Below are positions 42,207 to 43,864 of a stretch of 64,000 nt of DNA, piece by piece (the stretch's first letter is position 1; each line of letters opens with the position of its first letter). This DNA comes from Corallococcus interemptor (GTDB lineage: Bacteria; Myxococcota; Myxococcia; Myxococcales; Myxococcaceae). Both the position numbers and the translations under genes were made by a program. The stretch lies in NCBI RefSeq assembly GCF_003668875.1, contig NZ_RAWM01000039.1, positions 2,394 to 66,393 on the forward strand. Reading direction: 5' to 3'. Below the pieces are notes generated by a model. The model saw only the letters and a list, made by a program, of their open reading frames with translations, was not told the DNA's origin and ran no database searches.

Positions 42207-43121
42207 ATGGCCATGCGTCTTCAGACATGCGGCGCCGCGCTGCTCCTGATCGTCTTCTCCGCCTGCGCCACGACGGAGCCGCGCACCCGCAGCACGCGGG
42301 GGGCCAACCTCCGGCGAGCGGCGGCGCTGCCCTGGAGGGATGGTGGACGGTGCGTCGTCCGCGAAGCGTCCCAGCCCTGGGCCGTGCTGGTGGAGCGGTG
42401 CTATCCGGCCCTCGACCATGACCGGGTCGAGTTCCACGACACGACGGGAAGATGCACGGTCGCCTCGGCCGACGCCGCGACCGTGGGACTCGGTTTCTGC
42501 GTGCTGGCGGCCCCTGAAGTCGCCGTGGGCGCCGTCATCGTCCTGGGGCTGGTGGTGGTTGGCGTCGCGATCAAGGAGGAGCTGGATGCGTATGAACTCC
42601 GGCACCTCTATCCCGAGGAAGCAGGGACCTCACGGGGGACGAAGGTTGCATCCCGAGATGCGGTAGCGGAGCGAGAGCCGAAGCTGGAACCGGAGCCAGC
42701 GGGCCAGGGCCGGCGGCCGCCGGTGCCACCCGTGCCCCTGGACCGGACGGGCCGCGCGAGCTGCGAGCCGGTGCCCGTGCCTCACGCGGGCGAGGACCGC
42801 TGGCACAACGAGTGTGCTGACAAGTACCCACCCAACCGTTATCCCGGGATGGATGTACTTGTGGGCGGCGTGAGCTTTGATGCTCTGCAAGTTGGCGTGC
42901 GCGTGTTGTGGGAGATCAAGACCCACCAATTCGACACGTACAATTCCTATATCAAAAAGAAGGAACTCGCGAAGGAACTCCTGCAATTGGATAAGGAGCG
43001 ATCAGCCGCATTGGCATGTGGATATCGCTTCGTTATTGGGGTGAGCACCCAAGCGCACAAAGACGCGTTACTCGAAGCAGATTCGTCGCTCGATGTTGTC
43101 GTCACGAGATGTCCACGATGA
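42207..43121 (+). CDS. Lipoprotein with C-terminal PD-(D/E)xK restriction-endonuclease-fold toxin-like domain
   Basis: Lipobox (LLLIVFSAC). The C-terminus has GVSFDALQVGVRVLWEIKT (D...E.K nuclease motif), followed by YRFVIGVS. The downstream gene overlaps by 13 nt, as an immunity gene would. Confidence 0.6.
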   Translation: MAMRLQTCGAALLLIVFSACATTEPRTRSTRGANLRRAAALPWRDGGRCVVREASQPWAVLVERCYPALDHDRVEFHDTTGRCTVASADAATVGLGFCVLAAPEVAVGAVIVLGLVVVGVAIKEELDAYELRHLYPEEAGTSRGTKVASRDAVAEREPKLEPEPAGQGRRPPVPPVPLDRTGRASCEPVPVPHAGEDRWHNECADKYPPNRYPGMDVLVGGVSFDALQVGVRVLWEIKTHQFDTYNSYIKKKELAKELLQLDKERSAALACGYRFVIGVSTQAHKDALLEADSSLDVVVTRCPR

Positions 43122-43864
43122 CCAAACCTGGTCCCCTCACCCTCATCGTCTACGCGCCTGCGCTCGTGGGCAAAGATGGACGCACGCTTGATGTCATCCA
43201 TGGGATGGAAAAGGCACTCCCTGGCGTGCAGCTGGCGTGGCGCCTCTCCGACCGCGGACGTCCCATCGCGTTGCCTCGACGCGACGAGTGGATCCTGGAA
43301 AAGATTGAGGACGGGGGCTTCCCCATCGTCTGCAACGGGAATGAGAGCTACCCCGTGACGGTGATGGGATGGGGAAGACCGGGAATCCTCAAGCCGGGAG
43401 GTCAACCCCAATTCGAAGTGCACGCAGAGATGCCACTCGATGAGCCTGTCATCACGGCAGCGTCGGCACTGCTTGAGGCCGTGGCGGAGGGAGCACGCTC
43501 GTTCTGGGGTCACGCGTCGCCGTATGGTTACGGCTCGGAAGTCTCGCGGCAGTACCGCCGCGCACCGGACGGCCCCGAGCAGTCACCTCGCGGGCTGCCC
43601 ATGCTCACCCTTCCACAGCAGCTCCCCGCACCTGAGATTCCCTGCTTCCTCGGGTGGGTGAACTACTGGTCCGCGGCCGCCGCGGAGGTCATCGGGTTCC
43701 CGGATCCTGCTCGCGATGCCGAGCTGCTCTCGCGGGCTCGCCGCACGCCGTCTGGCGGGTGGATCGTGCAGCTCACGGACACACCGCTCGACTACGACAA
43801 CCCCGGCCACCTGGCCGCGCTCAAGCGGACCTACGAGCGTTTCCCAGCGATTGGCGGGCGCTGA
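43109..43864 (+). CDS. Putative immunity protein for the upstream nuclease-toxin lipoprotein (hypothetical, 251 aa)
   Basis: Its start overlaps the toxin stop. Cytoplasmic with no signal peptide. Non-biased composition. Confidence 0.55.
   Translation: MSTMTKPGPLTLIVYAPALVGKDGRTLDVIHGMEKALPGVQLAWRLSDRGRPIALPRRDEWILEKIEDGGFPIVCNGNESYPVTVMGWGRPGILKPGGQPQFEVHAEMPLDEPVITAASALLEAVAEGARSFWGHASPYGYGSEVSRQYRRAPDGPEQSPRGLPMLTLPQQLPAPEIPCFLGWVNYWSAAAAEVIGFPDPARDAELLSRARRTPSGGWIVQLTDTPLDYDNPGHLAALKRTYERFPAIGGR

Follow-up and report, generated by a model that had tools for sequence, protein, structure and literature searches.

Two described toxin–immunity systems stand closest to the subject of this study, a gene pair within a 64-kb stretch (~70% G+C) of the Corallococcus interemptor contig NZ_RAWM01000039.1, hereafter the window. 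The pair consists of a predicted lipoprotein gene (gene A) and a gene for a cytoplasmic protein (gene B). The SitA toxins of myxobacteria are outer-membrane lipoproteins that pass to a recipient cell by TraAB exchange and then reach its cytoplasm. Six SitA families are described, and they are defined by N-terminal escort domains of ~375 amino acids (aa); SitA3 of Myxococcus fulvus carries a Tox-REase-5 (PF15648) toxin, and SitA4, SitA6 and SitA7 are non-modular, the last being described only as ‘a predicted DNase’ (PMC8546572). Sorting of SitA1 goes with a lipobox in which Lys is absent at position +2 (PMC5562445). The sitAI loci are reported to be often located on mobile elements. The second system is TseT–TsiT of Pseudomonas aeruginosa (PA3907–PA3908; PDB 7dym and 9oz0), in which a Tox-REase-5 nuclease is delivered by a type VI secretion system (T6SS) with PAAR and chaperones. 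Tox-REase-5 has been given the signature ‘Y, FDG, EAK, Y, Q, W’ and the immunity family Imm52 (Zhang et al. 2012). Those Tox-REase-5 effectors that have been characterised are DNA-degrading enzymes, RNA is a further substrate for one pair, and changes of the conserved Asp or Lys inactivate them.

We consider it highly likely that the window locus is a two-gene polymorphic toxin–immunity cassette. An initial annotation of the same DNA, made from the letters alone, had recognised a toxin–immunity layout and proposed, by analogy, a SitA/SitI pair. The toxin–immunity reading is strongly supported by the folds of both products, by strict pairing, by co-diversification and by the pattern of decay. 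The SitA/SitI assignment is not supported as family membership, given the short N-terminus, the absence of sitB and a hydrophobic helix of membrane grade.

Predicted folds of the two products

The C-terminus of gene A matches the Pfam family DUF6310 (PF19829) at 183.4 bits, against a gathering cut-off of 27, and residues 180–304 are modelled by AlphaFold2 with predicted local distance difference test (pLDDT) scores of 91–98. When the predicted structure was used for a fold search, the closest fold to DUF6310 was that of the Tox-REase-5 nuclease in TseT, a T6SS effector from Pseudomonas. In the model, strands 1 and 2 carry D216 and D225, respectively, and strand 3 carries E236-x-K238, which is the D ... 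(D/E)-x-K arrangement on the core strands of the restriction-endonuclease fold. These four residues, together with F224 and W235, are invariant or nearly so across DUF6310 domains that are only 30–66% identical. The PD-(D/E)xK-type motif first noticed in the sequence (FDAL...LWEIKT) is real, and a lack of catalytic D/E/K geometry, which the initial annotation had named as grounds for abandoning its reading, was not encountered, since the predicted catalytic residues sit on the expected strands of a confident model. The gene A motifs are FDA and EIK, as against FDG and EAK in the Tox-REase-5 signature. The modelled fold suggests that DUF6310 is a metal-dependent PD-(D/E)xK nuclease that would act as a toxin. 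At the start of the domain, C186, H193, H200 and C203 (C-x6-H-x6-H-x2-C) are invariant or nearly so in the same alignment and may form a zinc site.

Gene B, which had first been read as having no recognisable domain, belongs to the Pfam family DUF5953 (PF19378) with an E-value of 1e-113 (378.8 bits, against a cut-off of 25). Its predicted structure is nearest to Imm52 proteins, including TsiT, the immunity partner of TseT, and an Imm52 fold stands directly downstream of a Tox-REase-5-type toxin domain. Some members of the family are named ‘Immunity protein 52 domain-containing’ or ‘DUF3396 domain-containing’ in UniRef. Genes A and B map to the two chains of a single solved toxin–immunity complex (9oz0), and TseT–TsiT gives the best or near-best structural match for both partners. 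The likeness covers the common PD-(D/E)xK core, the motifs FD[GA] ... E-x-K, and the immunity gene directly downstream of the toxin gene. The differences are that the window proteins are only 7–13% identical to TseT and TsiT, with no Pfam cross-match or profile match, and that the window locus has a lipoprotein signal and lacks the T6SS, PAAR and chaperones by which TseT is delivered.

Pairing, diversification and decay of the cassette

A search based on gene A gave 82 loci, from Corallococcus, Myxococcus, Pyxidicoccus, Citreicoccus, Archangium, Cystobacter and Vitiosangium. Across these loci gene B lies directly downstream and on the same strand in every case (90 of 90 gene A copies), and both genes are full-length in 87 of the 90 pairs. 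The search based on gene B found gene A directly upstream at all four loci recovered (Hyalangium, Stigmatella and Myxococcus). Conservation of the downstream gene independently of the lipoprotein had been put forward in the initial annotation as a result that would speak against a toxin–immunity pair; the pairing proved strict in both directions, and gene B is not independent of gene A. Among the 80 loci kept, genomes carry four to six or more loci each, and the 64-kb window holds no further cassette copy.

The window pair lies among genes for a vault-like protein, RdgC, a peptidase S13 and a prolyl oligopeptidase. The syntenic site of Corallococcus coralloides has the same flanks, with the vault-like gene and a small open reading frame (ORF) bordering one end and an unannotated gene and rdgC the other, and holds three tandem A–B pairs, as against one in the window. 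A second C. coralloides locus holds four more, giving seven copies over two loci, and some gene B copies in these tandem arrays are truncated. Between dispersed loci, homology starts within ~60 nucleotides (nt) of the gene A start and ends 10–25 nt past the gene B stop, and the duplicating or moving unit is therefore just genes A and B (~1.67 kb). Comparison of the dispersed loci showed no sitB-like or transposase gene within this unit, and a larger mobile unit or flanking accessory genes were rejected because homology between loci is confined to the two genes. No consistent link to mobile elements was seen at the loci inspected; a transposase gene adjoins one of them (L088). The G+C content at third codon positions is 0.92–0.98 in neighbouring genes, 0.86 in the N-terminal part of gene A, 0.55 over gene A residues 241–304, and 0.70 and 0.81 in the two halves of gene B, a gradient also seen in the averages for 69 paralogous pairs. 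The most extreme local composition shift around the cassette falls in the final 64 codons of gene A (42927–43118).

Toxin domain and immunity gene co-diversify, and recombination uncouples both from the N-terminus. Over 83 pairs, toxin-domain distances correlate with gene B distances (r = 0.46, Mantel p ≤ 0.001), whereas the corresponding value for the N-terminus and gene B is r = 0.09, with a partial r of about 0, and N-terminus and toxin domain are weakly coupled (r = 0.20). Within the toxin domain, mean entropy is 1.48 bits in the helix formed by residues 241–270, as against 0.53 in the almost invariant catalytic core (residues 186–240). The variable helix and the immunity protein diversify together, and alleles therefore probably mark self versus non-self.

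DUF6310 is also reused on other scaffolds. In a search of 1.84 billion representatives it was always C-terminal, in proteins of 120–1,130 aa, and the scaffolds include lipoproteins, eCIS_core (PF13699, DUF4157; a contractile-injection cargo domain), Transglut_core and CBM_2, some of them outside the myxobacteria; eCIS_core was present on five of the ten long DUF6310 representatives scanned. DUF5953 follows directly after an eCIS_core–DUF6310 fusion in a Flavobacteriales metagenome-assembled genome (L092) and after a short DUF6310 lipoprotein that has no helix, and a transglutaminase–DUF6310 fusion has two small unannotated ORFs downstream instead of DUF5953. The N-terminal module and hydrophobic helix of gene A, for their part, are joined to a different, Cys-rich tail in four metagenomic proteins (P0407, P0409–P0411). 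This alternative tail is ~55 aa long with the pattern CxCxC...C...C...C (L083 4001–5149, contig Ga0068860_100020706), and the abutting downstream gene at that locus encodes 205 aa, differs from gene B and has a faint Sel1 match. The two may be a second cargo–partner pair on the gene A scaffold. One toxin domain on several scaffolds, and an N-terminal module with an alternative C-terminus and a different partner, are the pattern of polymorphic toxins (Zhang et al. 2012), the alternative C-terminus being represented by only these four proteins. The search with the N-terminal module returned an oddly small set of 170 candidates, in which the lack of further alternative C-termini is weak evidence.

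Copies that lack the toxin domain, or that lack the helix and the catalytic Asp, keep an intact DUF5953 gene, and the retention of gene B next to a decayed toxin fits selection for protection against an incoming toxin.

The lipoprotein scaffold and competing explanations

Full-length homologs of gene A are 65–98% identical to it and come from Corallococcus, Myxococcus, Pyxidicoccus and Stigmatella; the nearest proteins to the pair, at 98% and 100% identity, belong to Corallococcus sp. AB049A. The lipobox recognised at the outset is genuine, as L-S-A/G-C is kept in nearly all full-length homologs, and residue +2 is Ala, not Lys. The small N-terminal domain behind it (residues ~30–91) has a mean top-residue frequency of 0.87 in the homolog alignment and is helical in the AlphaFold2 model, with pLDDT of 72–81 over residues ~31–70 and below 50 from residue 77. 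The hydrophobic helix that follows (residues ~92–122), which was absent from the initial annotation, reaches a Kyte–Doolittle mean of 2.68 over 19 residues, has G94, G96, C98, G108 and G114 invariant, and is bordered by slightly more basic residues on its C-terminal side. The Pro-rich linker reported earlier is present, at about residues 158–192.

Helices of this grade recur in front of DUF6310. Of 54 informative representatives, built on unrelated scaffolds, 36 have a membrane-grade segment in the 150 residues before the domain; for long proteins the count is 21 of 29 before DUF6310, compared with 2 of 29 in which such a segment lies elsewhere. On the other scaffolds each helix is then followed by a Pro-rich linker, and there is no sequence similarity between the helices. 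The eCIS_core toxins have the same order of helix, linker and DUF6310, followed by DUF5953; they differ in that the window protein has no eCIS_core, and the genes examined near the pair included no contractile-injection genes. A further comparison is offered by T6SS effectors that contain transmembrane helices of their own (prePAAR or Tse6-type), as they too have a hydrophobic helix attached to a toxin that acts in the cytoplasm. Their helices are proposed to aid the crossing of the target inner membrane by the toxin. However, their helices are N-terminal and shielded by Eag chaperones, whereas that of gene A is internal, in a Sec-exported lipoprotein, and has no accompanying chaperone gene.

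In the explanation that we favour, gene A would encode an exported, lipid-anchored protein that passes from cell to cell and carries a toxic, metal-dependent nuclease at its C-terminus, which most likely cuts DNA, possibly RNA, in the cytoplasm of the target cell. The helix and the Pro-rich linker may carry this nuclease across the recipient inner membrane. Gene B, translationally coupled to gene A through an ATGA overlap, would supply a cytoplasmic Imm52-type protein that directly binds and neutralises the cognate nuclease, protecting the producer and its clonemates. Within Cystobacterineae genomes the cassette has been duplicated, dispersed and recombined.

Several results weigh against this explanation. 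The initial annotation had suggested looking for a Tox-REase family in the C-terminal domain, and no Tox-REase Pfam match at E ≤ 1 was obtained for gene A or for 50 homologs, DUF6310 being found instead; a broad DUF6310 profile failed to pick up the TseT sequence. For the downstream gene a check for Imm families had likewise been suggested, and here the fold is Imm52-like, while the score for the Imm52 Pfam family (PF15579), 11.2 bits (E 0.28), falls far short of the cut-off of 25, with a weak match in only three of 50 gene B homologs (best E 0.056). A search of the pair against NCBIfam matched nothing, and no sequence-level link to Tox-REase families or to PDB chains was detected, so that the link to Tox-REase-5 is structural only and comes from predicted models. 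Because a sequence-level link is undetectable, DUF6310 and DUF5953 are best described, on their modelled folds, as divergent sister families of Tox-REase-5 and Imm52 and not as members. Neither family is mentioned in any paper in the literature searched. The helix of residues 241–270 would be the surface that sets immunity specificity, a suggestion drawn from its variability alone, and the family as a whole is unusually uniform for a polymorphic toxin (65–80% identity over the whole length). Delivery is the weak step. The conserved lipobox points to an outer-membrane location and would fit SitA-like outer-membrane exchange, but the conserved helix points to inner-membrane retention: a Sec-exported lipoprotein with such a hydrophobic helix would normally be arrested at the inner membrane and leave its nuclease in the producer cytoplasm, which is at odds with an outer-membrane cargo. 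Neither delivery genes nor sitB were found at the locus.

That the pair is a genuine SitA/SitI system, of a described family or of a seventh, is possible but doubtful. Lipobox and +2 residue are as in the SitA1 rule, a C-terminal nuclease and a downstream immunity gene form an operon that recurs at several loci per genome in the same group of organisms, the loci fetched place gene A in Cystobacterineae genera only, and two family members come from Corallococcus macrosporus (9,003,593-bp contig). SitA3, with its Tox-REase-5 toxin, and the non-modular SitA4, SitA6 and SitA7, the last a predicted DNase, add to the resemblance, as the gene A scaffold likewise carries essentially one toxin family. 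Set against this, the region before the toxin domain is ~160 aa long, in a protein of 304 aa in all, whereas the escort domains that define the SitA families measure ~375 aa; this region includes a helix hydrophobic enough that it should block Lol-dependent transfer to the outer membrane; the cassette unit has no sitB; and the loci inspected, unlike reported sitAI loci, show no consistent association with mobile elements. The SitA label would therefore be an unproven analogy that departs from the family definition in escort size, and identity of gene A with a described family, SitA4–7 included, seems unlikely given the stated size of the escort domains.

The same helix could give the pair a different topology. 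If it is a stop-transfer anchor, the gene A product would never be exported; its lipidated domain would be periplasmic and its nuclease cytoplasmic, held inactive by gene B, and the pair would be a membrane-tethered toxin–antitoxin or defence module released by an envelope signal, or an addiction cassette. The strong hydrophobicity and conservation of the helix suit this arrangement, as do the slightly more basic residues on its C-terminal side and the coupling of a cytoplasmic gene B product to gene A. Simple topology would also put DUF6310 of the ~1,050-aa transglutaminase fusions in the cytoplasm, and Tox-REase-5/Imm52 pairs have been argued to derive from toxin–antitoxin systems (bioRxiv 10.1101/835710). 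PADLOC gives gene B a weak match to the candidate defence component PDC-M17B (E 0.0034) but gives gene A none, and a defence-system reading was rejected because this is a single weak match, to gene B only. In type II toxin–antitoxin systems both partners are cytoplasmic and the toxin has no export signal, whereas the lipoprotein signal of gene A is conserved. Intact immunity genes beside decayed toxins are expected for an incoming toxin and not for an internal pair; DUF6310–DUF5953 also occurs on an eCIS_core protein and on helix-less short lipoproteins, which would be fully exported; and self-recognition accounts better for genomes with several diverged copies whose specificities co-evolve. 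We therefore regard a tethered, internal pair as quite unlikely. For the helix itself, simple Sec topology favours a tether in the producer inner membrane, with gene B holding the nuclease inactive; an aid to crossing the recipient inner membrane is the better fit to the export signal, to the immunity genes that are retained and to the lipoprotein relatives that lack a helix.

A more far-reaching proposal is that helix, linker and DUF6310 form a self-contained cell-entry unit, in which the helix inserts into the recipient inner membrane and threads the nuclease into the cytoplasm without a large escort, and that this unit has been attached to a lipoprotein, to contractile-injection cargo and to transglutaminase-like surface carriers. 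The window cassette would then represent an undescribed, minimal class of myxobacterial kin-discrimination toxin, which we hold to be unlikely. A housekeeping nuclease with a regulatory partner and no role in conflict is very improbable. The position of the window pair among ordinary chromosomal genes would agree with it, but copy number differs at the same site between the window and C. coralloides, copies are dispersed with unrelated flanks, codon composition is atypical, decayed copies exist, and a toxin with its immunity protein is what the pair most resembles in structure.

Gene starts, neighbouring features and implications

Both ORFs described in the initial annotation were confirmed on the + strand (Table 1), with adjustments to their lengths. 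Gene A starts at ATG 42207, with GGAGG at 42194–42198, 8 nt 5' of the start, and stops at TGA 43119–43121, giving 304 aa and not 305. Gene B lies in the +1 frame relative to gene A. The start first proposed for it, 13 nt before the toxin stop, is possible (ATG 43109, 251 aa, 13-nt overlap with gene A), but Met4 of that product (ATG 43118) is the invariant first residue across 50 homologs. With this second start the product has 248 aa and the genes overlap by 4 nt (ATGA), as they are called to do in every intact pair inspected at other loci, and on the alignment it is the best choice.

Table 1. Features of the cassette, with coordinates in the 64-kb window.
Feature	Coordinates	Strand	Details
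Gene A, predicted lipoprotein toxin	42207..43121	+	304 aa; ORF read from sequence
Gene A alternative start	ATG 42213	+	second Met (MRL...); start in most homologs
Type II signal peptide, lipobox FSAC	42207..42266	+	predicted lipidation at Cys20; C20 invariant
Small conserved N-terminal domain, residues ~30–91	42294..42479	+	invariant C49, C65, C83
Membrane-grade hydrophobic helix, residues ~92–122	42480..42572	+	VGLGFCVLAAPEVAVGAVIVLGLVVVGVAI; Kyte–Doolittle 2.68 over 19 residues
Charged, Pro-rich, disordered linker, residues ~123–185	42573..42761	+	pLDDT <50 up to residue 172; high entropy
Predicted toxin domain, DUF6310, PD-(D/E)xK nuclease fold	42744..43118	+	nearest Tox-REase-5
Hypervariable helix of toxin domain, residues 241–270	42927..43016	+	candidate immunity-specificity surface
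Gene B, predicted cytoplasmic immunity protein	43118..43864	+	248 aa; DUF5953, Imm52-like fold
Hairpin before gene A	42177..42196	+	partly overlaps GGAGG site; probable terminator of upstream unit
Hairpin after gene B	43866..43895	+	perfect 11 bp, GC-rich, directly past stop, between convergent genes; likely terminator

The hairpin past gene B has no T-run. The hairpin before gene A may, alternatively, control gene A translation, and in C. coralloides (L001) each tandem unit is preceded by the same hairpin with compensatory changes. Upstream of gene A there is no sigma-70-like promoter match and no conserved promoter was found; the leaders fall into several classes across loci. Many loci (among them L005, L011, L015, L021 and L036) have in common a ~70-nt leader with CTGGCATACTCCA at ~30–75 nt before the gene A start, which ends in GAAAGG and a GTG start and differs in class from the leader of the window copy. 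The CTGGCATACTCCA element is loosely like a sigma-54 –24 element, with spacing off consensus.

Directly upstream of the cassette, the ORF at 41938–42159 (+) encodes 73 aa, in which a signal peptide is followed by 40 mature residues that include six cysteines; it has no Pfam match and could yield a small secreted peptide. An ORF at the C. coralloides syntenic locus shares 69% identity with it, the other ~80 loci lack it, and it was rejected as a third component of the cassette because it is present at the syntenic locus only. The vault gene beyond it (39241–41502, –; its ORF extends to 41937) encodes a bacterial protein homologous to the major vault protein (MVP) of eukaryotes, with Vault repeats and an MVP shoulder domain (E 3e-45), and is kept at the C. 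coralloides site, where the called gene is shorter. At a distance of two genes from the cassette, 36329–37945 (–) encodes a protein in which a LysM domain is combined with a muramidase-type C-terminal domain resembling T6SS_VgrG3; no T6SS genes were noted over the examined part of the window. Genes for DUF2379 and DUF2381, both myxobacteria-expanded families, and for Ser/Thr kinases lie near several cassettes at other loci (L084–L087).

The mechanism of action proposed here is conventional, and what is new is that a Tox-REase-5-like/Imm52-like cassette is built on a short myxobacterial lipoprotein that bears a helix. Two Pfam families of ‘unknown function’ thereby gain a working function, DUF6310 as a putative Tox-REase-5-like nuclease toxin and DUF5953 as a putative Imm52-like immunity protein. 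That unrelated scaffolds have a membrane-grade helix immediately ahead of the toxin domain is relevant to how envelope-delivered toxins reach the cytoplasm. For the social myxobacteria, a multi-copy, rapidly diversifying cassette is added to the candidate markers of self and non-self. Published counts of kin-discrimination loci rest on the six SitA families, and the cassette points to a class of such loci that may have been overlooked.

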